DNA of 64,000 nucleotides from contig DATBDY010000045.1 in NCBI GenBank assembly GCA_036269695.1, forward strand, positions 4,607 to 68,606, written 5' to 3'. A program made the position numbers and the translations under genes. The notes below the pieces were generated by a model. The model ran no database searches and was not told where the DNA came from. It saw nothing but the letters and a program-made list of their open reading frames with translations. Each line of letters begins with the position of its first letter. The stretch's first letter is position 1. The DNA is from Allosphingosinicella sp. (GTDB lineage: Bacteria > Pseudomonadota > Alphaproteobacteria > Sphingomonadales > Sphingomonadaceae). Positions 25,403 through 61,225 of the stretch are shown in pieces.

Positions 25403-25489
25403 GCCCAGGTGGCGGAATTGGTAGACGCACCAGCTTCAGGTGCTGGCGCTCGCAAGGGCGTGGAGGTTCGAGTCCTCTCCTGGGCACCA
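25403..25489 (+). tRNA. tRNA-Leu (anticodon CAG)
   Basis: Acceptor stem GCCCAGG/CCTGGGC, D-arm GGCGGAATTGGTAGACGC, anticodon stem-loop CCAGC-TTCAGGT-GCTGG. It has a long variable arm, T-arm GGTTCGAGTCC, discriminator A and an encoded CCA. Confidence 0.9.
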
Positions 25490-27333: not shown

Positions 27334-27347
27334 GCCTCTGTTTTTCC

Positions 27348-27441
27348 GTCATCCCGGACTTGATCCGGGATCCATGAACACGGCCTCTCTGCGGATTATC
27401 GTACGCCGTGTTCATGGGTTGCGGATCAAGTCCGCAATGAC
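27348..27441. repeat. dispersed palindromic repeat, family B (intact copy)
   Basis: GTCATCCCGGACTTGATCCGGGATCCATGAACACGG ... CCGTGTTCATGGGTTGCGGATCAAGTCCGCAATGAC. It is a nested hairpin: each arm also folds on itself. Confidence 0.7.
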
Positions 27442-27511
27442 GAATGGCACGCGCTAAAGCTTTCGTAAGGCTCCAGCGGCTATTCCGCTCCGGTCACAGG
27501 AGGGGTTTGCC

Positions 27512-27942: not shown

Positions 27943-28200
27943 ATGCCGGTTTCCAACACCTCGATCGTCGAGCGGATCGCGCGCGTCATCGCCGGCCGCG
28001 TCGTCAGCATCAACGCGGAAGGGGACGACCCCTCGGCGGGCGACCAGGTCGACTCGATCTGGCGCGATTTCAGGGACGATGCATGCGCCATCCTCCGCAC
28101 CCTGCGCGAACCCGATCGCGCGATGGCCCAAGCGGGCGATCCGGCGATGTGGGAGCGGATGGTGCTCGCCGCGCTCCAGGAGGAAGGCGCCTCGGCCTGA
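27943..28200 (+). CDS. hypothetical protein
   Basis: 85 aa with GAGAGGAG upstream of the ATG. GC3-rich. No domain. Confidence 0.5.
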   Translation: MPVSNTSIVERIARVIAGRVVSINAEGDDPSAGDQVDSIWRDFRDDACAILRTLREPDRAMAQAGDPAMWERMVLAALQEEGASA

Positions 28201-28207
28201 CTTCCTC

Positions 28208-28294
28208 GTCACGCCGGACTTGATCCGGCATCCATGAACACGGAAGCAGCAACTTACCGAGGCAGCGTTCATGGGCCCCGGATCAAGTCCGGGG
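28208..28294. repeat. Family B palindromic repeat copy interrupted by the casposon. Its last 4 nt (CGAC) are displaced to 39817..39820.
   Basis: GTCACGCCGGACTTGATCCGGCATCCATGAACACGG ... CGTTCATGGGCCCCGGATCAAGTCCGGGG. The terminal complement of GTC... is found only after the right-hand duplication. Confidence 0.7.
28276..28294. repeat. target-site duplication, left copy (CCCCGGATCAAGTCCGGGG)
   Basis: Identical 19-mer at 39798..39816 in direct orientation, immediately outside the TIRs. The exact TSD/TIR border is ambiguous within the G/C runs, so the TSD is 15-19 bp. Confidence 0.75.
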
Positions 28295-28335
28295 GGTATA
28301 GTGATAAGGGGTGGAATTGTCGCGTTTGACCACAG
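28295..28335. repeat. casposon left terminal inverted repeat
   Basis: GGTATAGTGATAAGGGGTGGAATTGTCGCGTTTGACCACAG. The reverse complement of the right end is GGTATAGGGAACCGGTGGGAATTGCACGTGGATGACCACAG. Shared blocks are GGTATAG, GGAATTG and TGACCACAG. Confidence 0.75.
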
Positions 28336-28393
28336 CGCGAGCTGCCGGCCGGTGCGTCGCCCTGCCCCCGGAAAAGGGCGGTTGCTGCGCTGC

Positions 28394-28921
28394 CTATTTC
28401 AATGATGCGGCGACGTACAGGCGATCCAGCACGTCGCGGGTTTGTTCGCCTAGCTGTCGCATCGCCAGCAGAAGCTGTGGCACCGCCCGCCTATCGACAG
28501 CGTTGTCTAGCGCGGCTTTCACGCTATTGATCGCGTGTGATAGCTTCGTAATAGCCTGAAGATCGGCCCCAGTTTTGAGAACGACCCGAAGATCAACCAG
28601 CATCCATTGAAGCTTAGTAACGGCATCTAGGCAATCTTGGCGGAGAACCGGGGCATCCTTAGAATCGTTAGCCAATGCATCATTGAGACGACGCACCTTT
28701 TGGGATAGCTGGATTATCTGATCATTGAGATCATTCGTCGTGTGACTAAGATGTTCGCTCCTTGCCTTGTCCACTTCGAAATGCCGATTAATAGCAGGGG
28801 AAACGAAATAGACACCGACTCCCGCCGCAACACTTGCCACGATCGTTAGCCAAACAGGCATCTTGTCCGCAAACAACCATGGGCACTTTGATTGCCACCA
28901 AGCTCCGAACCTACCGAGCAT
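28394..28921 (-). CDS. hypothetical membrane-anchored coiled-coil protein (casposon cargo)
   Basis: AT-richer ORF with one N-terminal TM (WLTIVASVAAGVGVYFV), then helical repeats. The start is ambiguous (GTG 28960, ATG 28921, ATG 28861). It overlaps or abuts the upstream gene. Confidence 0.5.
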   Translation of the reverse strand: MLGRFGAWWQSKCPWLFADKMPVWLTIVASVAAGVGVYFVSPAINRHFEVDKARSEHLSHTTNDLNDQIIQLSQKVRRLNDALANDSKDAPVLRQDCLDAVTKLQWMLVDLRVVLKTGADLQAITKLSHAINSVKAALDNAVDRRAVPQLLLAMRQLGEQTRDVLDRLYVAASLK

Positions 28922-30074
28922 CAAGTTGTGCCCTGTGGTTAGCGACCTGAACGCGCTCACTGAGGCTGAGGGTCATCGCATTCGTCGCAGGGCGCCCGAG
29001 TTGGCGCTGTACCTCCCGCCAGTTCGTCGGCCTCATCGAATTGATATAATCGTCCAATTCCGCTTCACGCGGAGCCTTTCCAGCGCCGGCCATAGCATTT
29101 TTGACAGTATCAGTCGCCTCTTGCTTCGTCTGATCGAAATTTTGGGCGGGGTCGGCAGTTGCGACCATTAGACCGGCCGAGGCCAAAATGGACAGCGACC
29201 CAAGCGCAGCGATGATTGAAAACCGACCCGGTGAGTTAAAGTTCTGGGCAAATTCCTCAACAAGCGCTTCGTCATAATAGTGGTCAATAGCCTGTTGAAG
29301 GTCCATCCCTTGGAATGACTCGATTTCACCGATACTGTAGGCGAATACCGAGGCAACCACGTACTTAATTAACCGGGCGGCAGCATATGGTTGCAACGGG
29401 TCTTTACCGCGATAGTCGTCACCAAACACGTCAAGCTTGGAGTGCTCTCCCCAAACGTAGCTCGGATAAACCCGTGAAAAAATCTCTTCATAATATTCAG
29501 GGTCAAGCTTTGTGATCGCGTGCTTATTCTGGAGCCTTCGTGAAACCCGAGCCGGAAAGTCGCGGCGTGCAAGGGCCGTGTTCAGCCACCGCACCTTCCT
29601 CGCGGGCACGATTTCCCCCTGCAATAGCGCGATCGGCGTATCGTCTGTCTTTCGCCAAGGGTGCGTTATCTCACCGATTAGAAACGGATCGAAGTGTCCG
29701 TACGGAGGCGACATCACCAAATCGCCGGCCTTCGCATCAACGAAGAGGCGGATGACGTTGCCTAACTCGGCGGCAAACGATTTCGCTTCGGTGCTCCCGG
29801 TCTGATACGGATACGGGTTGTAAGCGGAGGGGCGGCGAGAGGGCGGCGTATTCGTCGCACCCCGCACGTAGCGTCCTATCGCGTCCGACATGTGCAAATG
29901 CCGGCGGATCAACTCTTCCGACTCAAAAACGCGATCGTTCGCATCGAAGCCGGGCAGGCTCAGGAAAACGGAGCGAGTGTCACGGAATAGCTCAAAGAAC
30001 CGACGCCCGGTGCCGGCATAGATCAACCAGACCGAAACATCATTACGAATCAAACGAATGCGCGATAATTCCAC
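28911..30074 (-). CDS. hypothetical protein, 387 aa (casposon cargo)
   Basis: GTG start preceded by AGGGGGG. There is one hydrophobic segment near residue 310 (FSIIAALGSLSILASAGLMVA). No domain recognised. Confidence 0.55.
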   Translation of the reverse strand: MELSRIRLIRNDVSVWLIYAGTGRRFFELFRDTRSVFLSLPGFDANDRVFESEELIRRHLHMSDAIGRYVRGATNTPPSRRPSAYNPYPYQTGSTEAKSFAAELGNVIRLFVDAKAGDLVMSPPYGHFDPFLIGEITHPWRKTDDTPIALLQGEIVPARKVRWLNTALARRDFPARVSRRLQNKHAITKLDPEYYEEIFSRVYPSYVWGEHSKLDVFGDDYRGKDPLQPYAAARLIKYVVASVFAYSIGEIESFQGMDLQQAIDHYYDEALVEEFAQNFNSPGRFSIIAALGSLSILASAGLMVATADPAQNFDQTKQEATDTVKNAMAGAGKAPREAELDDYINSMRPTNWREVQRQLGRPATNAMTLSLSERVQVANHRAQLDAR

Positions 30075-30410
30075 GAAGCCCCCCTGTCATAAGGCAGCCG
30101 AGCCTAACGTGTGTTTACGTGCAACGCTAGCGGGCGGTGGGCGCGTCTACAGCCGCTTTGATATGCAATCCCGTCCCCCGACCTGATTTGGTTGTCCGCG
30201 AAGCGGCTCATGCCACAGGCGACGCCTAAAGCTCGGCTGGTGACATAATGCCGTAGCGGCTGGGGCGACAGCGCTCTTAGGGCATGCGAAGCGCCCGGCG
30301 CTACAGGACCGTCAAACTACGACTTCGATACTCTTCCTGCTCACCCGCCCTCAAACGCTCGCCTTTTAATCAACAGGCCGCATGTTACAGTGGCGTCGGG
30401 AGGAAGCGTC

Positions 30411-31871
30411 ATGCTCTTATCTGCCGCGCTTGGTATCAATCTTAGCCAACCCCTGCTCGATTTCGTCGATATCGACATGGAGCTCGATTTCCCGCTCTAC
30501 ATTGACCCGCTGGGGTTCGTGGACCCAAAGGACCGCTTCGCGGCTGAGTGTCAGGAGGATATCCGCGATTTCTTTGGGGCCGTTCTTCAGGCCATCATCG
30601 ATGGCGACTTAGGGAAAGGGGGAGCGCTACTAGCTGCTCTCCAAGAGCCGAATGAAACCCATCTAGGAGTTTCACAAGGCGAGCCGAGAGGGCGGGGGAT
30701 CGGTGCGAAACAGGCGCAACAAATTCTCGATAACTTGAGGGCAAGCCCGGCTGCTCGGACAGGGCTTCTACAAGACCTAACCGACTGCGCCTTGTTCATA
30801 GACAACGTTGGCGCGGACAAGGTTTCAGATATAACCACTAACATCATCCGCCGTCATCTGATCGAATACACACAGCAGCAATTTGAACACCTCCGTGTCC
30901 CTATAGACACTATATTGCCAACGGGCCGCCTATGGGCTCGCGGCGAGGCTAGGTGGGACAACACACAGTTTGATCGTGTGCCAGTAGTAGAAGGGCGGAG
31001 AGTGCTGCTAGTTCCGAAGCGGTATGTCCGCTGGCGCGGCGGGATGCAACAACTTGCATCGCAATACTATAATCACTTCGTAACTAATTTTGTGAAGGAA
31101 GAGCAGCTACAGATAAACGGTCATCTCGTTAGAGTCGTAAAAACGAAAAAAGGGGAAAAGCGTGAGGTATTCAAATATGATATCCACAAAGACATGCCCC
31201 TTACAAAGGAAAATTTAGCGCGGTTTTCCGTTGAAAACCCCCAAGTCTATCATGCTTTCAAGGGGACGCTGGTCCGACGCGGCTCCATCGGGCTGCGAAA
31301 GTTGCTGGAGGTCGATGGCGAGCCATTTGAAGGGCGAGCCTTCGACGCTGAAGTGACACAGGTGTTACGGGACATTCCTTCCGGCAGGCCAAGCGCTACT
31401 GCGTACCACCATATCGTCGCCGGTCTGATTACCTACATTTTCTATCCAAATCTCATTACTCCAACGCTAGAGTTAGAAATCAATCAAGGTAGAAAGAGAA
31501 TCGATATTGCATACGCGAATGCGGCGAGTCAGGGACTTTTTCGTGAGATACGCGAAGACCCGTTCCTGCTTGCGCGTGAGATCATGGTTGAGTGCAAAAA
31601 CTACACGGAAGATTTGGAGAATCAGGAAATTGATCAGATGATTGGACGTTTCGACCCGCGCCGGGGTCGATTTGGAATTATCGCATGTCGAGCCGTACAG
31701 GACGAAGCACGCCTCTTAGAGAGGTGTCGAGACATGTTTCGGGCACAGCAAGGCGCGGCCATTGTGTTAACAGATGACGACTTTACGGGGTTACTCGCTG
31801 TTCCGGAGATAGATCGGGGGAATGCGGTCGAAACCCTTTGCCGCCGTAAGTTTCGTGCTTTGCTCCAATAA
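30411..31871 (+). CDS. hypothetical protein with a C-terminal PD-(D/E)xK-like nuclease motif (casposon cargo)
   Basis: ATG 30411 preceded by GGGAGGAAG. The C-terminal region has GRKRIDIAYAN ... EIMVECKNY (D ... E-x-K spacing of the restriction-endonuclease fold). The N-terminal ~330 aa are unrecognised. Confidence 0.6.
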   Translation: MLLSAALGINLSQPLLDFVDIDMELDFPLYIDPLGFVDPKDRFAAECQEDIRDFFGAVLQAIIDGDLGKGGALLAALQEPNETHLGVSQGEPRGRGIGAKQAQQILDNLRASPAARTGLLQDLTDCALFIDNVGADKVSDITTNIIRRHLIEYTQQQFEHLRVPIDTILPTGRLWARGEARWDNTQFDRVPVVEGRRVLLVPKRYVRWRGGMQQLASQYYNHFVTNFVKEEQLQINGHLVRVVKTKKGEKREVFKYDIHKDMPLTKENLARFSVENPQVYHAFKGTLVRRGSIGLRKLLEVDGEPFEGRAFDAEVTQVLRDIPSGRPSATAYHHIVAGLITYIFYPNLITPTLELEINQGRKRIDIAYANAASQGLFREIREDPFLLAREIMVECKNYTEDLENQEIDQMIGRFDPRRGRFGIIACRAVQDEARLLERCRDMFRAQQGAAIVLTDDDFTGLLAVPEIDRGNAVETLCRRKFRALLQ

Positions 31872-31899
31872 CTCAGTTTGTCGAGCGCGAATTCGGCGA

Positions 31900-34800
31900 T
31901 CAGAGCGGCGTCAAATAGCCTCCCCAAGAGGACTCTCGGTACGTAACCGGCCTCGCCTCCGCGAGCCTGCGCCTTAGATTTGATGGGTCGAGGCTGAGTA
32001 TGCGCGCGGCTCCCCTGAGGCCGTTTTTTTCGACCGCTCGGCACAGGGCCGCAATACCGGCTGCCTTGGCGGCGCGTTGAATCGCTGCGGTCTTAGATAA
32101 GCTGGCCAATGCCGAGTTTCCGATGAGCGCGGCGAGGACACTGCTCTCTCCCGACAAAGCCTTTCTCAATTTGGCCCGCGATATTCCCAGCGCTTCAGCG
32201 ACAGTCGCCGGCCGAAGGGTCTGGACAGTCTCCCTCAGCTCGGTAGCCAACCCATTAAGGGAGGAGGTCGAACTTCCGTAATCGGGCGTCGCGCTCCGGT
32301 CTAAACCGATAAAGAACTGCTCCTCCCATCGGTTCGCTTCCTTGCCGATATGCCGAATTCCGGTAGCGAGAACATGCCGGCGGCGTGTCGAGCCGCGATC
32401 AGCAAAATCCGCGTTCAGGAATTTGGATTCAGAGCGAAGATGATATTGCGCCAGTGCATGGCGATAGGATTTGAGGCCAGCCGGTAAAAGCGGCTCGGCG
32501 GTCTCGCGGTCAAAGGCGGCGGCCGATGCCTTGGAATGGTCGGTGTCAAATGGAGCTATCGGCTTCGGGAGCCGGACGGCGGGCTTTCGGCCACGCCTCT
32601 TGCCGCCGATCAGCTCCACAGGCTCACACGGATTTGCGGTGAAGGATAGGAGGAAGCCAAACGGCTTCACCTGTTCCCGGTAGCTCCGTCCCGCATTGTA
32701 GTGCCTGAACCATCGCAATAGCTCGGGGGTGGTCGCCGCGTAGCGACTGACGGCGGGGGCATCCAGCGCAGGATGATAGCCTAGGTCGACCCGATCCGGG
32801 GTGCCGGCCAGCGCGGCGCTCACAATCTGCCACCATAGATCATGGTGCCACAGCTCGAGCTTCAATGGCCCTAAGTTCACTTGGGGAGGCGGAATGTCGG
32901 CAGCCGGATCGTCTTTTCCGTAAGGCGCTCGCAAATGGCCCAACCCGTGAGCGGAAGCCTTCCGAATTACAGGTTTGCCGGTTTCGTCGATATTGAACAG
33001 GCAATACCGTTTTGCGGATATGGCCCAGCAATAGAGTGGAGCAAATTCGCTCCCGCCAATTCGGAAATTCTCATCCTCGATTTTTAGAATTGAGCCTGAA
33101 AAAGAATACGGGTTTAGCGCCCCGAACCAATCGACAATTGCCCGCACACGGTCGCGGAATTGCTCCTCGGACATTGCGGCCGGTTTGGCGATTGCCATGC
33201 TGTCGGTATCGCAAAACGACCACCCCAATTCCGCGTCCGTCACCAATCGCTCGGTAACCGCCAGCATCAGCCTCGCCGCTCCGGCAATCAAAGACGCCAC
33301 CAAGGGGTGAAAGAATGGCCCCGGCTCCTCAACCCGTTCGGACTGGAAGCTGAAAGGATCGTCGGTCCCGCTGTGCACCGTGAGGGAAATCGGCTCCGCC
33401 CGATCGGCGACATTGATTTCGGCGAAAACGCCATAGCTTGTCGAATTGGCCGCAATTTTGATAGCGTTCTGCTCTATCTCCAACGCCTCCCGCTCATTTG
33501 AATTGGCATTGTCGCGGCGGCCTTTGACGGATTGCCGAAGCTCGATCAGCCTGCGGTAAAAATCGTCCTCAATAGGATCGACCACATATTCCGCTTTGCC
33601 GCTGATATTGATCGGCCGCAGCCCCGATTGAACCGGCCCCGGCGCGAAGGCCATTGCTTCGACTACTTGCACCGGCTTCCCCGTGAGCAGCTTCGCGGCG
33701 ATGCAATCTGCCAGCGTGAACCATAGCGGCTGCTCGGACGTGAGCGGATTGAGGCCAATCGTCGGCTGCGCTTCCCCGTTGTAGCTGGCGCGTATCGGGA
33801 AAATGTCGGCATTGGGGAGCACCCGGACCAGCACCGCCAGCCCCTGCCACACCGGCTTTTCCCTCAAGTCAGTTGCATCGATGCTCGCCAGCAACTCGCG
33901 AGTTTCGGCGGTTGCATCTCGCCACGTCATCCCCTCTGCAATGACGAAGCGCCACAGGCCCATGAGGGTGCAAACGGTTGGGTACATGGACAGGAAATCG
34001 CAGAGCATGACGTGTCGCAGCTCGCGCCTGATTCGCACCTCTGAGCGCCCGCCGAAATAGCTTCCCATGATGTTGGCGAGGATCTGTCGCGGGAAATCCG
34101 GCTGGATCTTCTGCCACGGCCGGATGCCCATATCGCGGAAATTGCCCTTGCCGATGCTGGCTTCGCTGAAAACCTTTTCGGGGGGAGTGCTCGTTATCCC
34201 GAAGGCGGCATACCGGTGGACAAGCTCCGCATAGCACTCCCACGTTGTCTGCACGTCGCCCATCGCATAGCGGACCATCGCGCTCGTTATCGGCCCTTCA
34301 AACTCCTCAAATTTGAGCTTGGGATTGGGAACGCTTAGGTGTTTGGCTAGGCCCGCGAGCGAGAATGATCGGGCGAAGATGGAGCCCGCCAGCGTCTTCA
34401 CATCGACAAAATGACCGGCCCGAAAGGGCGATTTATCGCCGCGCCGCCTTTGGCTACGCGCGTCCCGCTGCTTCGGAAGCCCCGCGAACCGAATGAATGC
34501 GGAGCGCTGCGAAATGTGCCTCACTCGCACATGCGGTTGATATGGGTTTTCAGACAGCGCGAAGCTGAAGCCTCCGCGCATTTCATTGCGAGCGGAGCTA
34601 TGGCGTATAGCTATCCGCGAAATGTCGAACGGAAGATTGAAGCCGACGATGGTAGCCCGGCAGGCGTAGCCGATGGCGTAGAAGATCGTCTCCGCAAATT
34701 CGTCCCGAGTTAGCAGCGTCAACTCAGCCGTTTTCGTGTAGGAGCGGAGCACTTCAAGCTCGGCGGCTGAGACGGTCGAGGGCTCATAGAAAATGCCGCT

Positions 34801-35037
34801 GCCGTGCAACTCTCCCGCCCGCCGTACCTGATAGGTGCCGAAGCGCAGCGCCTGGCCCGCGTCGGTCCTCGTCTCTGTGTCGAAAACGAGCGTCCATGGC
34901 GAGGCCGGCACCTCTGAGCGTTTCCGCTTGGGCGCCGATGTTTGCGGCTCTTTCAGCTCCACAAAGCGGGGGCCGGCGAAAGCGCGAAGCGCTATCGGCA
35001 AGCGGTCGGATATTTCGGGCAGGGCTTCGGCGTTCAT
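31900..35037 (-). CDS. family B DNA polymerase (casposon PolB) with a long C-terminal extension
   Basis: Exonuclease motifs: ExoI LVFDTETRTD, ExoII GFNLPFDISRI, ExoIII YAMGDVQTTWE. Polymerase motifs: motif A LCDFLSMYPTV, motif B KIAANSTSYGVF, motif C FCDTDSMAI. Also KxY AISAKRYCLF. Confidence 0.9.
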   Translation of the reverse strand: MNAEALPEISDRLPIALRAFAGPRFVELKEPQTSAPKRKRSEVPASPWTLVFDTETRTDAGQALRFGTYQVRRAGELHGSGIFYEPSTVSAAELEVLRSYTKTAELTLLTRDEFAETIFYAIGYACRATIVGFNLPFDISRIAIRHSSARNEMRGGFSFALSENPYQPHVRVRHISQRSAFIRFAGLPKQRDARSQRRRGDKSPFRAGHFVDVKTLAGSIFARSFSLAGLAKHLSVPNPKLKFEEFEGPITSAMVRYAMGDVQTTWECYAELVHRYAAFGITSTPPEKVFSEASIGKGNFRDMGIRPWQKIQPDFPRQILANIMGSYFGGRSEVRIRRELRHVMLCDFLSMYPTVCTLMGLWRFVIAEGMTWRDATAETRELLASIDATDLREKPVWQGLAVLVRVLPNADIFPIRASYNGEAQPTIGLNPLTSEQPLWFTLADCIAAKLLTGKPVQVVEAMAFAPGPVQSGLRPINISGKAEYVVDPIEDDFYRRLIELRQSVKGRRDNANSNEREALEIEQNAIKIAANSTSYGVFAEINVADRAEPISLTVHSGTDDPFSFQSERVEEPGPFFHPLVASLIAGAARLMLAVTERLVTDAELGWSFCDTDSMAIAKPAAMSEEQFRDRVRAIVDWFGALNPYSFSGSILKIEDENFRIGGSEFAPLYCWAISAKRYCLFNIDETGKPVIRKASAHGLGHLRAPYGKDDPAADIPPPQVNLGPLKLELWHHDLWWQIVSAALAGTPDRVDLGYHPALDAPAVSRYAATTPELLRWFRHYNAGRSYREQVKPFGFLLSFTANPCEPVELIGGKRRGRKPAVRLPKPIAPFDTDHSKASAAAFDRETAEPLLPAGLKSYRHALAQYHLRSESKFLNADFADRGSTRRRHVLATGIRHIGKEANRWEEQFFIGLDRSATPDYGSSTSSLNGLATELRETVQTLRPATVAEALGISRAKLRKALSGESSVLAALIGNSALASLSKTAAIQRAAKAAGIAALCRAVEKNGLRGAARILSLDPSNLRRRLAEARPVTYRESSWGGYLTPL

Positions 35038-35396
35038 GCCTGCCTCGCCCCAGCTGGGGACTTCGCTCGCTCGATAAGGGCGGTTCCAAATTCTGTCAGC
35101 TTCTCAACAATCAGCCGGAGCAGGTCGGCTAAGCCGAGCAGGAAATGGCCGATACAATCCAGCATCGGCTCGGCGGCTGCATCGAACGGCGGATGGCCCT
35201 TTTGATCGTCTGTCACCTTGCGGTGGCAGTTGCTGCAAATGATCACCATCGCTTCATCGCGCTTATGATCGGCGACATGATGGAGATCGAAGCATCGCCA
35301 ATCTGTTTCGCCGCACGTGCCGCACCGCGGCTCATTGGTGCCGAGCTTTTCGAGGCGCGCCTGTTTGCGAGCCTCCGCCGCAAGGGGATTACTCAT
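35034..35396 (-). CDS. HNH endonuclease
   Basis: CGTCGE ... DLHHVADHK ... CSNCHRK, a Cys4 plus His-Asn-His pattern. ATG 35396 with AGGAG 5 nt upstream is preferred over GTG 35411. The stop overlaps the PolB ATG (ATGA). Confidence 0.85.
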   Translation of the reverse strand: MSNPLAAEARKQARLEKLGTNEPRCGTCGETDWRCFDLHHVADHKRDEAMVIICSNCHRKVTDDQKGHPPFDAAAEPMLDCIGHFLLGLADLLRLIVEKLTEFGTALIERAKSPAGARQA

Positions 35397-35407
35397 CACA
35401 ACTCCTG

Positions 35408-35980
35408 TCACTGAATGAGCCGGTAGACCTGTTCGAATCCTTCGCCTCCGGCGGCGGCGAGGCGGTAGAGACTGTTCGGGTCGGTTTCTAAAGGATGCGA
35501 TTTGCCCGCTGCGTCCTTGACGCTGCGCCCCTTGAACGGCTCCAGTTCCGCAATGTCATTGGTTTCGAGAAAGCGCCGCACGGCCGCGAGATGACTACCG
35601 ACCACTGAGGCCTGATCGAAGCCGCTAATCCTCAGCATCTTCGACTGACCGGCCGTGAGCACCCGCATGTGGCGCAATCGTTGGTCTGTGATTTGCCAGC
35701 GGCGGCCGCGCCGCTCGGCAAGCGCATTCTCCCGAAGGAACCGGCGCAACCGCTCCGGCGACACACCCGCTTCCTTCGCAGCGTCGCCTTGTTTGCCGGT
35801 GCGGCGGAGTGCCTTCAGCGCGGCCTCTAACCGGTCCTCACCCTTGATCGGCTTGCGGGTGCGGATCGGCGCTTCGCCGGCTCTGGCGTGACCGCGCGCT
35901 TGAGACCGGCTGAGGCCCTTCGCCGCAGCCCGCGCCAAGCGCCGCTCATACTCAGCCTTATAGTCGCGCCGGCGCGCCAT
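35408..35980 (-). CDS. HTH-containing protein (casposon)
   Basis: Start at MARRRDYKAEYERRLARAAAKGLSRSQARGH. It has a predicted HTH (QGDAAKEAGVSPERLRRFLRE). Confidence 0.6.
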   Translation of the reverse strand: MARRRDYKAEYERRLARAAAKGLSRSQARGHARAGEAPIRTRKPIKGEDRLEAALKALRRTGKQGDAAKEAGVSPERLRRFLRENALAERRGRRWQITDQRLRHMRVLTAGQSKMLRISGFDQASVVGSHLAAVRRFLETNDIAELEPFKGRSVKDAAGKSHPLETDPNSLYRLAAAGGEGFEQVYRLIQ

Positions 35981-36102
35981 GCTTCCCGCCCGCTCTATTC
36001 CCCGACGCGGCGGACAGCCGCGCCTCCTCACGCAATGGAAGCTCATCGGGGAGGCAGGAGTCGAATCGTCAAAACATCAAAAGTCGGGCGAATTCCGCCG
36101 GT

Positions 36103-36783
36103 CTAATTAGATTTCCAAAAGGCTTTCAAATGGCGGATTAGCGTCTGCTGATCGGGCCGGTGTTCCGTAAAATTATCGGGGAATTGGCCTTTTCCAATTT
36201 TCCGGATTTCGCTGGCTTGCGACTTCCAAGGCATTTCCGGCGTGATACGCCCGGACTTCACAAGCGCCGCCGCGATTTCCAACACCCGCTCCCGATTGGA
36301 GGGTCGGCCAATCGTAGGTTTGGCGACCGCACCGCCTGGAATGATGCGGACTTTGGAATATCGCGCATTGCCGTCGCTGAATTCGGATTTTCGCCATTTG
36401 GCGAATTGCTTCTGGATTAGGAATTGCGGGACGGGCTCCGGCTCCGTCGCTTTCGGCCGATCAGCGGGAAATCCGAAGGCGAGCCATTCACCCCGTTCCA
36501 ATGCCGCAATTAATTGGTCCACCCGGCTTTCGCGGGCTTCCACGGTTGCGGACCAAAGGGACATGCCAGTCGCTATCGTGTCGATTAACGAGATTACATT
36601 CTGAGCCCCGGCAAGCCTGAATTTCTGTTTTTGAGCTTCAAAAAGCTGGCGCTGCTCTGCGGTCTTTTCGGCCAATTTGGATTGATCGACGCGCGGCGAA
36701 AATAGCTCCAAAGCCTCCTCTAATTCGAACCCTTCTCGCCACGCGGTTAGCCTTACATCTGCCGTTTTCCGATTAACCATCAT
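36103..36783 (-). CDS. hypothetical protein, 226 aa (casposon, first gene of the minus-strand module)
   Basis: ATG-ATG start next to the AT-rich divergent region shared with cas1. No domain recognised. Confidence 0.55.
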   Translation of the reverse strand: MMVNRKTADVRLTAWREGFELEEALELFSPRVDQSKLAEKTAEQRQLFEAQKQKFRLAGAQNVISLIDTIATGMSLWSATVEARESRVDQLIAALERGEWLAFGFPADRPKATEPEPVPQFLIQKQFAKWRKSEFSDGNARYSKVRIIPGGAVAKPTIGRPSNRERVLEIAAALVKSGRITPEMPWKSQASEIRKIGKGQFPDNFTEHRPDQQTLIRHLKAFWKSN

Positions 36784-36873
36784 TCTCGCCTAATTACCCG
36801 AAATCACTGCGGAAAATGCTTGTTTCGTGCTATGTAATTTCCTCGAAATTGGCCGCGCGAGGAACCACTAATC
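36784..36873. promoter_or_regulatory. AT-rich divergent intergenic region between the replication module and the Cas1 gene
   Basis: A 90-bp gap, the most AT-rich stretch in the element core. It contains the repeated motif CGAAAT (CCCGAAATCAC / CCTCGAAATTGG). Confidence 0.35.
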
Positions 36874-37986
36874 ATGCTGCTCGATCCCCAATTCGCCCAT
36901 GCCGAGATTGAGGCTCAACCGCAATGCTCCGCCCTCGACGCAAGCGCTCCCGATGAATGGACGGAGCGAAGCGATTTCTGGTTAGAGGATACCGCGCGGC
37001 AGGCAAAACCGCGCCGCAAGCGGGAACGCAATCCCAACCCACTAATCCTTTGCGGACATGGGGTGTCGCTTCGGGTGGAGCACGGCGCATTGGTCATCCG
37101 GGACGGCTTCACTCATTACCCGCAAGAGCAGGCCCGGTTTCGGTTCTTCCCCCGTGATTTGGAGCTACCAACCCGCATCCTGTTGCTTGACGGGAGCGGC
37201 ACCCTCTCTTTCGACGTGCTTAGCTGGCTAGCAGAGCAAGGGGTGGCCCTCGCGAGGGTGAGCTGGACCGGCGAGGTCGCGACCGTGGCGAGTGGCACCG
37301 GCTATGCGCCGGATCGTGAAAAGCTCCGCTGGCAGCATGAAACCCGTGCCGACGAAACCAAGCGGCTCGCATTCGCCGCCGATATTATCCGGCAGAAATT
37401 GGCAATAACCATCGCAACGTTGGAACACTATGTGCCCGCCTCTGGCGCCCGCGAAGTAGCCATCGCTAAAGCGAGCGCCGGCATCGATCGGCTCGGCCGT
37501 GAACGGTTCAGCGACATGAACGGGGTGTTCGCCATTGAGGGCGAATGTGCGTCCGCCTATTTCGCCGCTTGGCATGGCCTTCCGCTATCATGGAAGGGCG
37601 TAGCGAGACGGCCGGTCCCCGACGATTGGCATCGCTACAGCGGGCGCAGCTCTCTGGCGACGGGAGTCAAGGCTGAGAACCGGAACGCCTCTCACCCGCT
37701 CAACGCGATGCTGAATTACGGCTATGCGGTGAAGCTCGCCGAAATGAAGATACAGGCGATTGCCGACGGCTATGATCCAAGCTTCGGGATCATGCACAAC
37801 GGCAAGCGCGGAAACCCGGCTTTCGTCCTCGACCTGATCGAGCCGGAGCGCCCCCGAGTAGATGCCGCCACTCTCGCGTTCGTCCAGAGCCGAACTTTCG
37901 CCGCTGCGGACTTCGTAGTCAGCCCGAACGGATCGTGTCGGCTGTCGCCGCAGCTAGCCCGAGCCGTTGCGGCGCTGGCCGCTTAG
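36874..37986 (+). CDS. cas1: Cas1-family integrase (casposase)
   Basis: N-terminal beta-domain pattern (LILCGHGVSLRVEHGALVIRDG ... ILLLDGSGTLSFDVLSWLAEQGVALARV). Catalytic pattern: E in FAIEGECASAYF, H in NASHPLNAMLNYGYA, D/E in DPSFGIMHNGKRGNPAFVLDLIEPERPRVD. Confidence 0.9.
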   Translation: MLLDPQFAHAEIEAQPQCSALDASAPDEWTERSDFWLEDTARQAKPRRKRERNPNPLILCGHGVSLRVEHGALVIRDGFTHYPQEQARFRFFPRDLELPTRILLLDGSGTLSFDVLSWLAEQGVALARVSWTGEVATVASGTGYAPDREKLRWQHETRADETKRLAFAADIIRQKLAITIATLEHYVPASGAREVAIAKASAGIDRLGRERFSDMNGVFAIEGECASAYFAAWHGLPLSWKGVARRPVPDDWHRYSGRSSLATGVKAENRNASHPLNAMLNYGYAVKLAEMKIQAIADGYDPSFGIMHNGKRGNPAFVLDLIEPERPRVDAATLAFVQSRTFAAADFVVSPNGSCRLSPQLARAVAALAA

Positions 37987-38000
37987 ACAAAGCGGACGGG

Positions 38001-38219
38001 CTAGAGCTGTGATTTGCGTTGCTCAAAGGCCGCCGTTTCTTTTGCCACAGCATCAATCAACTGCGCAGCGTTGCGCCGATAGCGAGCCATAGCGCTGGCG
38101 ACACCCGAGCCAATCGAGCGCGGGTTTTGATTGGCAAAGCTGTTCCGCCCCGGCCCCGTCCGCTTCGTGCCGCGCGGTTGCATCGCGAAGTCGCGCCGCC
38201 AGATCAGCGACCGCATCAT
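38001..38219 (-). CDS. possible small basic protein (72 aa); weak call
   Basis: Internal ATG-ATG of ORF 38001..38429 (MMRSLIWRRDFAMQPRGTKRTG...). No clear SD and no motif. It does not look like Cas2. Confidence 0.2.
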   Translation of the reverse strand: MMRSLIWRRDFAMQPRGTKRTGPGRNSFANQNPRSIGSGVASAMARYRRNAAQLIDAVAKETAAFEQRKSQL

Positions 38220-38491
38220 GGTTCGCTTTGGTGGGCACTGCGTGCGGCTTCGTCCTCTATGGAGCATGGGCGGCACTTCACCTCTGGACACATTAGCCCG
38301 GCTACCCTGCCGCTCGCTTCCTTCCGGCAGAGCCCGGCGCGGAGCTGAGTGGAAGGACACAGGGGCTCCGGTCCCCCCTACTAGGTTGGAGCTGCCTCGG
38401 CACCATTTCGCCGCAGACCCAATTTCCAATTTCTGCGAGCCGAATGCGCATGATACGACGGCCTGCCACTGCGACCGGAGGAGAGTCCATT

Positions 38492-39721
38492 ATGGATAAT
38501 TGGGCCGATGCAGCGCACAACTATACACCGCTTTCGCCAGCATCCGGTACCGAGGGGAATAACCCTCCTAGCTATGGCCAGCTACTCGAATGGCTTGCGC
38601 ACACCGACTCAAGGGCTCTAGCATTAGATTTTTGGGCGCGCGGCAACTACGTCAAGTATTTAGCCGCATCGAGGCAAATGCAAGACCCAGTTGTTATAGT
38701 GCCATTTGACTACATTGATGAGCTTCGCGTATATTTCCGAAGGATGGTGTTGATGGGCCTACCTGCCCATTATGTATATACTGGAGAATTGTCGCCGCAA
38801 GAAAAGGTATCTTTTACCGTCCCTGGAGAGGACGATTTTGTTTTTGACGGTGGCGCAGGCTTCCTTGTAATTATGTCCGAACCATTTAGAATCCGTGGAC
38901 GTAAATGGCTTTACGCCTTGGGTAAATCTAGAATAATGCCTGAGGTATTCGCGGAATGGTTGCTTGAAGAAGCGGCAGTCGAGTTTGCCTCTGGCCGCGC
39001 TTTCCTCTCGCCTGCTGAGCTAATCGGTATACCGAAGCCTCTGCTGGCGGAGGGCTTAGATGTAGCGGCAGAGGTTCAAGACTCCATTGTTATCTCCTCG
39101 AAACTCTCTGCTGCAGAATTTATCTTTAATCTGGAGCTGCCTTATATCGATGACATGCCGCATGATACATTTACTAAGATCATCGGCGATCACGATGACC
39201 GGCTTTTCCGGTTTCGCCGAGCAATAAGAAAACTTGTAGCCGGAGTTGTGCCCGGAGAGCTAGATGACACGTTAGAAGAATTAAAAGACGAGATTGCTCA
39301 GTTGCGCTTATCTGATTCCGGCCTACGATTCCGACAGACAATATCTCGCTTCGGCGGCTCTCTGACTACCGTGGCGGCAGCAGGATCAGCGTTTGGTGCA
39401 TCTCTCGGAAGGGGGCTGAATAGTCTCGATACGGCCGGTCCCGTAGTCGCTGGTGCGGCCACGGCTGGGGCCGTTACTGCTTTGGTGGATATCTGGAAGC
39501 AAACAGTTGAACGGCGAGCAAAGCGAAGGGAAAACAAGTTTTCTATCTTCTGGGACCTCGGAGTCAAAAGTCCCTCACAACTAAGGCGACGTAAGAGCCT
39601 ATCAAAATTCAAGGCTTTGAAAAGTAGCACACCGGTGTTGATAAAGGAGGCTCAGGATTGCCATTGGATGTGCGAATCTGCTCCTAACCTCCGTTTGGTA
39701 TTCCAAGCCCGCAGCTCCTGA
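38492..39721 (+). CDS. hypothetical protein, 409 aa, with a Gly/Ala-rich hydrophobic C-terminal region (casposon cargo)
   Basis: ATG 38492 preceded by GGAGGAGAG. It is the most AT-rich gene in the window by eye. C-terminal segment is FGGSLTTVAAAGSAFGASLGRG ... VVAGAATAGAVTALV. No domain recognised. Confidence 0.6.
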   Translation: MDNWADAAHNYTPLSPASGTEGNNPPSYGQLLEWLAHTDSRALALDFWARGNYVKYLAASRQMQDPVVIVPFDYIDELRVYFRRMVLMGLPAHYVYTGELSPQEKVSFTVPGEDDFVFDGGAGFLVIMSEPFRIRGRKWLYALGKSRIMPEVFAEWLLEEAAVEFASGRAFLSPAELIGIPKPLLAEGLDVAAEVQDSIVISSKLSAAEFIFNLELPYIDDMPHDTFTKIIGDHDDRLFRFRRAIRKLVAGVVPGELDDTLEELKDEIAQLRLSDSGLRFRQTISRFGGSLTTVAAAGSAFGASLGRGLNSLDTAGPVVAGAATAGAVTALVDIWKQTVERRAKRRENKFSIFWDLGVKSPSQLRRRKSLSKFKALKSSTPVLIKEAQDCHWMCESAPNLRLVFQARSS

Positions 39722-39756
39722 GGCCGATTGATAGGATGTACCCACCGGGGCGTAAA

Positions 39757-39797
39757 CTGTGGTCATCCACGTGCAATTCCCACCGGTTCCCTATACC
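39757..39797. repeat. casposon right terminal inverted repeat
   Basis: CTGTGGTCATCCACGTGCAATTCCCACCGGTTCCCTATACC, the reverse complement partner of 28295..28335. Confidence 0.75.
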
Positions 39798-39816
39798 CCC
39801 CGGATCAAGTCCGGGG
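39798..39816. repeat. target-site duplication, right copy (CCCCGGATCAAGTCCGGGG)
   Basis: Identical to 28276..28294. It is followed by CGAC, which completes the interrupted family B repeat. Confidence 0.75.
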
Positions 39817-39837
39817 CGACGGTTCGGTGAAAGAGCC

Positions 39838-41625
39838 CTACGTCCCCTCCGCCTTGCGGTCGGCGAGCGGATTGTCCGGTCCGAAGATGATGTCGCTCAT
39901 CGCGTGGATGTCGCCTGACGCGGTCTGGCTGTCGAGGCGCTCGCGGTCGCGCTCGCGATAGATCCGTTCCACCCGGTCCACCTCCTCCGCATCGACGCAG
40001 AACAAGGCGAGGGCTTCGCGGCCCATCGTTACCGCCGATTCGAAGACCTCCCGGATCGTGGATTTGAGGTCGAGCGGCGCCAGCTCCATCAAATGGATGC
40101 GATCGTAGGCGCGCACGAACACCGCCGCCTGCGGGAAAGCGGCGAGGACCGGCTCCAGCCGATGCCGCGGGATCGCTGTATCGGTGCAGAAGAGCAGAGC
40201 CTTGACCTCGGCCGCGCCGGCGAGGCGGAGCAGGTCGAGCCTGGTGCCGTCGCCATAATAGACCTTCTGGCCGAAGCTGCCGACCAGCTCGATCTGCGCC
40301 GGCTTGGAATCGATGAGGGTGAGCGTGATCCCCTTCGCCATCAGCATCTGCGCGACGGTCTGGCCGAAGCGGCCGTAGCCGATGACGATCGCGCTGGAGG
40401 GCGGCGAGTCTTCCGGCCCCTCCAGGCCCGCCCCATCCCTCCGGCTGGCGCGGCGGTCGATCCAGTCGTTGACCATCATCAGGAAGGGCGTCGTCGCCAT
40501 CGACAAAGTAACGATGGCGCTGAACAGGCTCGCCGCCGCCGGCGCGACCAGCAAAGCGTTTTGCGCCGCGGCGAACAGGACGAAGGCGAATTCGCCGCCC
40601 TGGCTCAGCAGCAGACCGAGCTTCAGCGCGCGGCGCGTCTCCATCCGCATCGCCTTGCCGATGCCGAACAGGACCAGGGCCTTCACGGCCACCAATGCCA
40701 GCGCCATGCCGATGACGAAGAGCGGCCGGGCCCAGATGGCGTGGAGGTCGAGCATCATGCCGATGCCGACGAAGAACAGGCCGAGCAGGGTCGAGCGGAA
40801 CGGATCGATGTCCGCCTCCAGCTCGTGCCGGTAAGGGGAATCGGCGAGCATCACCCCGGCCACGAAGGCGCCGAGAGCGGCGGAGAGGTGGAGCGCCTCC
40901 ATCAAGGATGCGGCGGCGAACACGATGAACAGGCCGGCGACGACGAACAATTCGCGCTCGCTGATCCGGCCAACGAGGCGGAAGAGCGGGTTGATGAGGA
41001 AGCGACCGACGAGGACCAGGCCGACGATGGCGCCGACGGTGTAGAGAGCGAGCAGCCAGCCGGGCGGTACGCTGGGGTCGGCGGGTGCGCGGGACAAAGC
41101 GGCGATGATCGTGATCAGCGGGACGATCGACAGATCCTGGAAGAGCAGGATCGAGAAGGCGCGCTCGCCGGATGGGGTGTTGATCGAGCCGTCGGCGCGC
41201 AGGCTCGGCAGCACCTGCGCGGTCGACGACAGAGCGAGCGGCAGGCCGAGGGCGAGCGAGGCGGCGAGGCTGAAGCCGGTGACGACGAAGATCACGCCGG
41301 TGATGGCGAGGCCGGCGAGCGTCACCTGGAGCAGGCCGACGCCCAATATGTCGCCGCGCAGCCGCAGCAGCCGCGCCGGCTGCAGCTCCAGCCCGACCAG
41401 GAACAGGAGCAGGACGATGCCGAAGTCGGCGACGTGGACCATCTCGGCGGCGCCGGTAATGAGGCCGAGACCCTGCGGCCCGATCAGGGCGCCGGCGAGG
41501 AGGTAGCCGAGCACGGCGCCGAGGCCGAGCCGGCGAAAGACCATGACAAAGGCCATGGCCGCGCCGAGGATGATCGCCCCGTCGCGCAGGAAGAAGGCCG
41601 TCGCCTGCGCGGCGGCCGTGCCCAT
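39838..41625 (-). CDS. kefB: CPA2 family monovalent cation:proton antiporter / glutathione-regulated K+ efflux protein
   Basis: Multi-TM Na/H exchanger domain plus a C-terminal TrkA-N Rossmann (AIVIGYGRFGQTVAQML). Confidence 0.85.
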   Translation of the reverse strand: MGTAAAQATAFFLRDGAIILGAAMAFVMVFRRLGLGAVLGYLLAGALIGPQGLGLITGAAEMVHVADFGIVLLLFLVGLELQPARLLRLRGDILGVGLLQVTLAGLAITGVIFVVTGFSLAASLALGLPLALSSTAQVLPSLRADGSINTPSGERAFSILLFQDLSIVPLITIIAALSRAPADPSVPPGWLLALYTVGAIVGLVLVGRFLINPLFRLVGRISERELFVVAGLFIVFAAASLMEALHLSAALGAFVAGVMLADSPYRHELEADIDPFRSTLLGLFFVGIGMMLDLHAIWARPLFVIGMALALVAVKALVLFGIGKAMRMETRRALKLGLLLSQGGEFAFVLFAAAQNALLVAPAAASLFSAIVTLSMATTPFLMMVNDWIDRRASRRDGAGLEGPEDSPPSSAIVIGYGRFGQTVAQMLMAKGITLTLIDSKPAQIELVGSFGQKVYYGDGTRLDLLRLAGAAEVKALLFCTDTAIPRHRLEPVLAAFPQAAVFVRAYDRIHLMELAPLDLKSTIREVFESAVTMGREALALFCVDAEEVDRVERIYRERDRERLDSQTASGDIHAMSDIIFGPDNPLADRKAEGT

Positions 41626-61136: not shown

Positions 61137-61220
61137 GTCATGCCGGACTTGATCCGGCATCCACCTTTCTGCCTCTCATGTCCCGAAGGAAGATGGATCC
61201 CGGATCAAGTCCGGGATGAC
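61137..61220. repeat. dispersed palindromic repeat, family B (intact copy)
   Basis: GTCATGCCGGACTTGATCCGGCATCC ... GGATCCCGGATCAAGTCCGGGATGAC. Confidence 0.7.
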
Positions 61221-61225
61221 GAAAG

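Follow-up and report, generated by a model that had tools for sequence, protein, structure and literature searches.

A probable casposon in the hairpin arm of an intergenic palindromic repeat and the dyad-centred targets of its relatives

A 64-kb stretch of DNA from Allosphingosinicella sp., an alphaproteobacterium of the order Sphingomonadales (contig DATBDY010000045.1, positions 4,607 to 68,606; hereafter the window), contains an 11.5-kb island at positions 28293-39799 that encodes a Cas1-family integrase. We interpret this island as a casposon that inserted into the hairpin formed by the right arm of a palindromic repeat of ~95 bp, present in multiple intergenic copies, and that shares with its clade a mode of targeting centred on the dyad axis of hairpins, a reading to which we assign a probability of roughly 0.8. 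Casposons are the proposed ancestors of the adaptation machinery of CRISPR systems, and the casposases studied biochemically are exclusively archaeal enzymes with asymmetric targets linked to tRNA genes or EF-2. The element described here is of a known kind, with a target mode that appears to be unreported, and provides a natural example of a Cas1-family integrase that duplicates a short palindromic repeat.

The duplicated hairpin and the ends of the element

The original prediction placed a 19-nt direct repeat outside both ends of the island, and the sequence in question, CCCCGGATCAAGTCCGGGG, indeed occurs in exact form at only two places in the window, 28276-28294 and 39798-39816 (both plus strand). 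When up to three mismatches are allowed, five matches are found (0.02 expected), the remaining three being arms of the same repeat family. As also recognised from the start, the 19-mer is itself an inverted repeat (CCCCGGA-TCAAG-TCCGGGG), with a 7-bp stem and the loop TCAAG, and it folds as single-stranded DNA with an energy of -10.8 kcal/mol (z = -3.7). Because the asymmetric, non-self-complementary loop has the same orientation on the left and on the right, where an inverted repeat would read CTTGA, the two copies represent a genuine target-site duplication (TSD) of a hairpin arm, as had been proposed, and not a continuation of the terminal inverted repeats (TIRs) of the element. For comparison, we used 8 genomic and 80 metagenomic loci of Cas1 homologues, plus loci obtained by exact-protein look-ups (designated L001, L002 and so on). 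The direct loop orientation recurs in all 11 two-ended elements, comprising that of the window and those at L001, L002, L004, L022, L025, L026, L030, L037, L043 and L105.

Removal of positions 28295-39816, such that 28294 is joined to 39817, yields a 93-nt sequence that aligns over its full length with two intact paralogous repeat copies of the window (27347-27442 and 61137-61222) and folds as a single long hairpin (-31.5 kcal/mol, z = -6.9). The claim that deletion of the element restores a complete palindromic repeat, termed 'family B', is thus borne out; the outer ends pair as anticipated (CGTCAC/GCGACG), apart from one mismatch. In the left part of the interrupted copy (28207-28275), the outer end CGTCAC is accompanied by the hairpin of the left arm (CGCCGGACTTGATCCGGCA, 28212-28230), which remained unused, as well as by the inner stem ATCCATGAAC and a spacer; the right outer end of this copy (CGACGG, 39817-39822) is 16 bp distant from the kefB stop codon. 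The window contains six hairpin arms, and the one that was hit is the only one with CCCC...GGGG ends, a single case that fits base-specific recognition of the borders. The five unused arms (27352-27370, 27419-27437, 28212-28230, 61141-61159 and 61198-61216) end in TCCC/GGGA, TTGC/GCAA, CGCC/GGCA or TGCC/GGCA.

The runs of G and C at the borders leave the length of the duplication ambiguous (15-19 bp, as first estimated) when the window is considered alone, and this ambiguity is settled by the relatives. At L001, the exact repeat spans 15 bp (CTCCCCACTGGGGAG), and its native flanks, CCCT/AGGG, which are unlike the TIR ends CCCC/GGGG, complete a palindrome with an 11-bp stem. Moreover, GGGG precedes TATAG in 35 of 35 junctions, hairpin-less ones included, and the casposon NitAL212-C1 of Nitrosomonas sp. 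AL212, a member of family 3, has the TIR GGGGTATG and a 14-bp TSD (Krupovic et al. 2014, PMC4046053). Together, these observations show that the TIRs begin with GGGG, at 28293 (left end) and 39799 (right end), and reduce the duplicated core to the 15 bp of CCGGATCAAGTCCGG, found at 28278-28292 and 39800-39814. The true TSD of the window element accordingly measures ~15 bp, in keeping with the ~14-15 bp usual for casposons. The repeat appears 19 bp long because the native flanks of the target (CC at 28276-28277 and GG at 39815-39816) match the CCCC/GGGG ends of the TIRs, to which GG at 28293-28294 is best assigned. Before insertion, the target read ...GGGCC^CCGGATCAAGTCCGG^GGCGAC..., with joining points 15 bp apart and symmetric about the dyad of the hairpin. 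The TIR ends therefore mimic the GG/CC flanks of the target, and a full CCCC...GGGG hairpin is restored at both junctions.

The TIRs, which are imperfect, lie directly inside the 19-mers; the left one reads GGTATAGTGATA...TGACCACAG, and the right one is its complement. The left TIR (GGGGTATAGTGATAAGGGGTGGAATTGTCGCGTTTGACCACAG, 28293-28335, plus strand) contains the motif GGGGTATAG..GA..TGACCACA common to ~30 relatives, comparison with which fixed the TIR end as GGGGTATAG; the right TIR (39757-39799, minus strand) reads GGGGTATAGGGAACCGGTGGGAATTGCACGTGGATGACCACAG on the minus strand. The TIR strand that carries the 3'OH ends in ...CTATACCCC.

The island, which has a G+C content of 50-62% compared with 65-72% outside, is, as originally predicted, best classified as a casposon, its core genes being those of families 2 and 3, because it combines these TIRs with a casposase-like Cas1, polymerase motifs and an HNH nuclease. 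The 370-residue Cas1 protein (36874-37986, plus strand) matches Pfam Cas_Cas1 (1.7e-34) and TIGR00287 (3.6e-24), and its top match among solved structures is the casposase of Methanosarcina mazei (6OPM, 7e-19), ahead of CRISPR Cas1 proteins. Its gene lies outside any CRISPR-cas locus: no Cas2 family match was obtained among the proteins of the window, no other cas gene was found in the island and no CRISPR-like array in the 64-kb window. The 1045-residue product of 31900-35037 (minus strand) contains an ExoI-like motif (FDTETR) and motif C (FCDTDS) and is matched by Pfam DNA_pol_B (1.1e-3) and DNA_pol_B_2 (7e-3) and by a PHROG DNA polymerase profile (1.1e-6), which lends moderate support to its assignment as a family-B DNA polymerase (PolB); comparison with solved structures by sequence gave no match. 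A 125-residue HNH-type nuclease is encoded next to it (35034-35411, minus strand; PHROG HNH endonuclease, 4e-5) and shows a weak zinc-finger match.

The insertion site can also be compared with orthologous loci. In five relatives whose KefB proteins are 85-88% identical to that of the window (L097, L098, L099, L115 and L116), the 85-residue gene to the left of the interrupted repeat adjoins kefB, and none of these loci contains a casposon or the tandem 19-mers by which the proposed duplication could have been refuted. The intergenic site (L097, 6791-6806; L098, 6785-6788; L116, 1990-1993; L099, 6770-6921; L115, 2183-2227) lacks a repeat in L097, L098 and L116; the repeat found there in L099 is of a different subtype and has a single hairpin in each arm, and the contig of L115 breaks off within a third type of repeat. 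Since the presence and subtype of the repeat vary among such close relatives, the small palindromic repeats seem to be mobile themselves, with the spot between the two genes as a putative hotspot.

Target sites of related casposons and their explanation

Cas1 homologues of the window protein are numerous (711), and the named ones stem mostly from Sphingomonadales. Among the relatives in Sphingomonadales and other Alphaproteobacteria, whose Cas1 proteins are 40-78% identical to that of the window, Cas1, PolB and HNH are the only conserved genes, and the DNA outside the GGGGTATAG-type ends is usually a G+C-rich hairpin. At the level of sequence, ~25-30 apparently independent casposons are shown to place their TSD on the symmetry axis of such hairpins, which are either REP-like (repetitive extragenic palindrome) or terminator-like, many of them being arms of multi-copy REP-like repeats, with the consensus CC^CC-N11-GG^GG. 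In 25 of 34 junctions, the best palindrome centre has one and the same distance to the TIR. A 5-bp stem at the fixed position is found in 11 of 23 distinct targets, compared with 0.35% of 51,039 15-mers from flanking host DNA (binomial P ~1e-21). The native, non-TIR border reads CC^CC in 24-32 of 35 junctions, from which the consensus follows. In addition, all 11 used CCCC-N11-GGGG sites have complementary inner stems, as opposed to 8 of 26 unused background sites (Fisher P = 1.3e-4).

Two kinds of target predominate, namely arms of CGTCA-type repeats (the window, L002, L003, L020, L022, L025, L026, L037 and L105) and hairpins of the CCTCCCC...GGGGAGG type (L001, L004, L010, L031, L043, L044 and L046). 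The expected preference for the 'family B' repeat therefore holds insofar as palindromes are targeted, but the target is more generally a G+C-rich CC^CC...GG^GG hairpin, and other hairpin types serve in relatives. Relative to the outer CGTCA end of the repeat, the element faces one way in four cases and the other way in four, which is what a symmetric site would lead one to expect. At L030, a hairpin of even length gives rise to a 14-bp core that is likewise centred on the dyad, and hairpin targets are also found in more distant relatives (L008, L018, L024, L077 and L083).

Several individual loci deserve mention. The element at L105 (341-15685), a 15.3-kb relative in a CGTCA-type arm with the TSD CCGGACTTGATCCGG, has a variant right end (...GCTTTACCCC) and carries a serine recombinase gene and two ParB/RepB-like genes as cargo. 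The left junction of L010 (Sphingomonas sp. CL5.1, CP050137.1; 3801-3818) shows a run of 15 G residues (CGGGGGGGGGGGGGGGTATAG) where four to six are expected, which blurs the TSD (CTCCCGTTGCGGGG...) and hints at slippage in the G-tract where TSD and TIR meet. Unoccupied perfect CCCC-hairpin-GGGG sites lie near or beside the casposons of L016 (12468), L025 (12475), L024 (3137), L037 (15220) and L085 (1720), and some of these sites are formed by the opposite arm of the host repeat that the casposon occupies. Suitable targets thus exist in excess, and the elements are maintained at low copy number. The casposases P0102 and P0049, detected in 75 and 29 index blocks, respectively, each derive from a single locus seen across many samples, and these loci gave no evidence of recent multi-site mobility. 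Tandem, array-like casposon junctions were absent from the 1.27 Mb of loci.

Several points weigh against our interpretation. Four or five relatives, comprising three close ones (L029, L033 and L035) and a more distant one (L074/L075), adjoin non-palindromic DNA, with one end recovered for each; a search for the left ends of L029, L033, L035 and L075 found none. Insertions at non-palindromic targets, which had been named as a potential refutation, thus seem to occur to some extent, and the hairpin represents a preference rather than an absolute requirement. CCCC-N11-GGGG is rare in the background (26 sites per 0.96 Mb), and many of these sites are themselves repeat arms. Most loci are metagenomic contigs, whose independence was judged solely by their differing flanks and TIRs. 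No element yielded an exact empty site, by which we mean an otherwise identical sequence from which the element is absent, and the five kefB loci without a casposon are not sequence-identical to that of the window. The locus of L010 is rearranged in its relatives, whose CNNM protein is 97% identical: in place of the casposon and ~0.5 kb of unrelated DNA, they possess a GST gene, which keeps the comparison from being clean. Finally, the profile matches of PolB are weak, and its Pfam scores fall below the curated cut-off.

Three alternative explanations of the duplicated hairpin can be weighed against these data. A perfect palindrome P located at both ends of an element generates the order P+X...rc(X)+P (rc, reverse complement) and thereby mimics a TSD, such that the 19-mer could be a hairpin forming the outer terminus of a long TIR, with no host DNA duplicated. 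HenMar-C1 has in fact been drawn in this manner, with a 37-nt 'TIR' that holds CTCCCGGATCGGGAG beside GGGGATAAGG and a TSD of 1 (Krupovic 2014 Fig. S2, PMC4046053). We reject this explanation as highly improbable for the present clade, since the loop orientation is direct in every two-ended element, the hairpin sequence changes with the host while the neighbouring GGGGTATAGTGATA is conserved, and the outer flanks make up host repeats of which intact copies are found at other places. It would also be conceivable that the casposase has no target preference and that only insertions into harmless intergenic hairpins or repeats survive, given that the sites are all intergenic and such hairpins are abundant in these genomes. 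Survival bias can, however, neither fix the insertion point relative to the dyad nor impose CC^CC at the native borders, and the enrichment over flanking host DNA was obtained with intergenic DNA included, so that this idea, too, has very little to recommend it and was discarded. Similarly, attL/attR sites are typically marked by direct repeats of 15-20 bp, and the recombinase gene at L105 might suggest that the 19-mer is the att core of an integrase-type genomic island, with Cas1 as a passenger. This appears most improbable and was rejected, because Pfam, NCBIfam-type and PHROG profile searches detected no tyrosine or serine recombinase among the proteins of the window element, the conserved TIRs end in the GGG-TATAGG-type terminus common to archaeal casposons, and only Cas1, PolB and HNH are conserved across the relatives.

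The question of how the casposase recognises its target is more finely balanced. We consider it an even bet, or marginally better, that a symmetric casposase oligomer reads two identical half-sites, each consisting of CC^CC and the adjacent stem, on double-stranded DNA, which would make a palindrome its natural target. The main alternative is that the enzyme recognises a structure, either an extruded cruciform or a single-stranded hairpin formed during replication, with CCCC/GGGG merely stabilising the stem. Consistent with this idea, stems and loops vary widely (GGA/TCC, TCCCC/GGGGA, GTG/CAC, GAG/CTC) with complementarity kept, every used CCCC-N11-GGGG site is a hairpin, the hairpins are stable (~-10.8 kcal/mol), and Cas1-Cas2 has been reported to favour sites beside cruciform-forming inverted repeats (Béguin 2016 introduction). 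The CC^CC borders, however, are far more conserved than the stem interior, which argues for base-specific contacts, and the equally stable arms of the window (TCCCGGA...TCCGGGA) remained unused, albeit as a single case. Structure recognition therefore strikes us as possible yet rather unlikely. The rarity of motif sites without a hairpin keeps the present data from cleanly separating a sequence from a structure requirement and, hence, the half-site from the cruciform model.

Going by the casposases characterised so far, the element would be joined through its CCCC-3'OH ends to the two borders 15 bp apart, and gap repair would then duplicate the 15-bp core. More tentatively, and with somewhat less than even confidence, we propose that the casposases of this clade may recognise a two-fold symmetric (or cruciform) target and duplicate the palindrome, with TIR mimicry regenerating two complete target hairpins per insertion.

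Cargo genes and host surroundings

Two cargo open reading frames (ORFs) near the left end of the island, encoding 188 and 387 residues (28394-28960 and 28911-30074, both minus strand), and a third near the right end (38444-39721, plus strand; ~410-425 residues) have no family match. A 493-residue protein (30390-31871, plus strand) matches the phage family phrog_27295, of unknown function, over its whole length (1.4e-81) and is without a Pfam or NCBIfam match. Between the HNH and Cas1 genes lie, on the minus strand, genes for a 212-residue protein (35408-36046) with a weak helix-turn-helix match below the cut-off (HTH_17, 1e-3) and for a 226-residue product of unknown function (36103-36783), which is likewise among the genes predicted for the source contig.

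On the host side, the 85-residue gene (27943-28200, plus strand) ends just before the interrupted repeat and is convergent with kefB, which encodes a 595-residue cation/proton antiporter (39838-41625, minus strand). The KefB protein of the window was found on its own contig only, its nearest homologues being at most 88% identical. Inside the kefB coding region (40656-40790), a motif of 23-28 nt occurs three times at a spacing of 51 nt, which probably reflects the coding of repeated transmembrane segments. The only tRNA gene of the window, for tRNA-Leu (25403-25489), is 2.8 kb away from the insertion.

The host repeat has the hallmarks of REPs and miniature inverted-repeat transposable elements, as it is a short, imperfect, intergenic palindrome with three copies of 86-96 bp per 64 kb, all located past gene ends. 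Every copy shows the layout CGTCA-hairpin-inner stem...inner stem-hairpin-TGACG. The arms of the intact copy at 27347-27442 (TCCCGGA..TCCGGGA and TTGCGGA..TCCGCAA) are devoid of CCCC/GGGG ends. Rfam contains no family covering the repeat, and related arms are also present in Croceibacterium, Sphingomicrobium and metagenomic relatives.

Comparison with known systems

A close counterpart of the window element is NitAL212-C1, with which it has in common a bacterial host, the Cas1, PolB and HNH core, an intergenic position, a TIR beginning with GGGGTAT and a TSD of 14-15 bp. Judged from its host, its HNH gene and this TIR start, the element probably belongs to family 3 as well. Unlike the palindrome-centred TSDs of the ~25-30 elements described here, the TSD of NitAL212-C1 (AGCCGGTACTGCCC) forms no hairpin. 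In the casposon literature that we searched, no target rule is described for family 3 or bacterial casposons, nor is dyad-centred targeting of hairpins or REPs.

The casposons of family 2, found in Aciduliprofundum boonei and M. mazei (6OPM), are similar in their 14-15-bp TSD, their GGG(N)TATAGG-type terminus and an overlap of a few bases between TIR and TSD; further common traits are the importance of the terminal 3' nucleotides, which matter for integration by family 2 casposases, and the top solved-structure match of Cas1 to 6OPM. Their TIR termini (GGGTTATAGGTAG, GGGATATAGGTAAG) resemble GGGGTATAGTGATAG of the window element (Krupovic et al. 2014 Additional file 1 Fig. S2, PMC4046053). The targets of archaeal family 2 elements are asymmetric, in that the 3' end of a tRNA gene supplies a leader-like segment that directs adjacent, directional insertion, and the palindrome of the A. 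boonei target (the T-psi-C arm) lies upstream of or beside the TSD, outside it. In the clade studied here, by contrast, palindrome and TSD coincide, and both orientations occur. If the more tentative reading of a two-fold symmetric (or cruciform) target is correct, these casposases exemplify a symmetric, leader-independent choice of target by Cas1, unlike the leader-dependent archaeal casposases studied so far.

Insertion into palindromic intergenic repeats, which offer safe, multi-copy landing sites, is also known from insertion sequences that target REP or hairpin sequences, such as IS1397/ISKpn1 and those of the IS110/IS621 type. These elements rely on the unrelated DDE or DEDD transposase chemistry, and we know of none with a Cas1 integrase or a dyad-centred 15-bp TSD.

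Palindromes have been noted inside some casposon TIRs (Krupovic et al. 2014, PMC4046053). HenMar-C1 of Henriciella marina, like the window element an alphaproteobacterial casposon, has a 15-nt palindrome (CTCCCGGATCGGGAG) directly outside GGGGATAAGG, but it was published with a 37-nt TIR and a 1-nt TSD, and its palindromes are inverted as printed, not direct, which is why we do not claim it as a further case of hairpin targeting. Nevertheless, such earlier reports, that of HenMar-C1 among them, may deserve re-reading, and the occurrence of GGGGTATAG beside a CCCC...GGGG hairpin provides a practical rule for locating the ends of alphaproteobacterial casposons.

The comparison with CRISPR spacer acquisition by Cas1-Cas2, already drawn in the original prediction, remains one of mechanism only, as the island lacks the Cas2, leader and repeat-spacer array of an adaptation module. 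The inserted DNA is a self-encoded 11.5-kb transposon with fixed ends instead of a captured fragment of 30-40 bp, the duplication spans 15 bp as opposed to repeats of 25-50 bp, and tandem insertions were not seen. Both processes, however, involve a Cas1-family integrase, two staggered joins, the duplication of a short and often palindromic repeat and the regeneration of the target on both sides, and Cas1-Cas2 is likewise reported to favour inverted repeats and cruciforms. The analogy would now seem better grounded, because the behaviour is clade-wide and tied to a fixed position, and dyad-centred targeting is the closest formal match to CRISPR repeat duplication so far. With one protein, a TIR oligonucleotide and a hairpin target, it becomes possible to test what makes CRISPR repeats palindromic and in what way they are measured by Cas1. 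If the more tentative reading of a symmetric or cruciform target holds true, no living system would come closer to the proposed event in which a casposon target site gave rise to palindromic CRISPR repeats.
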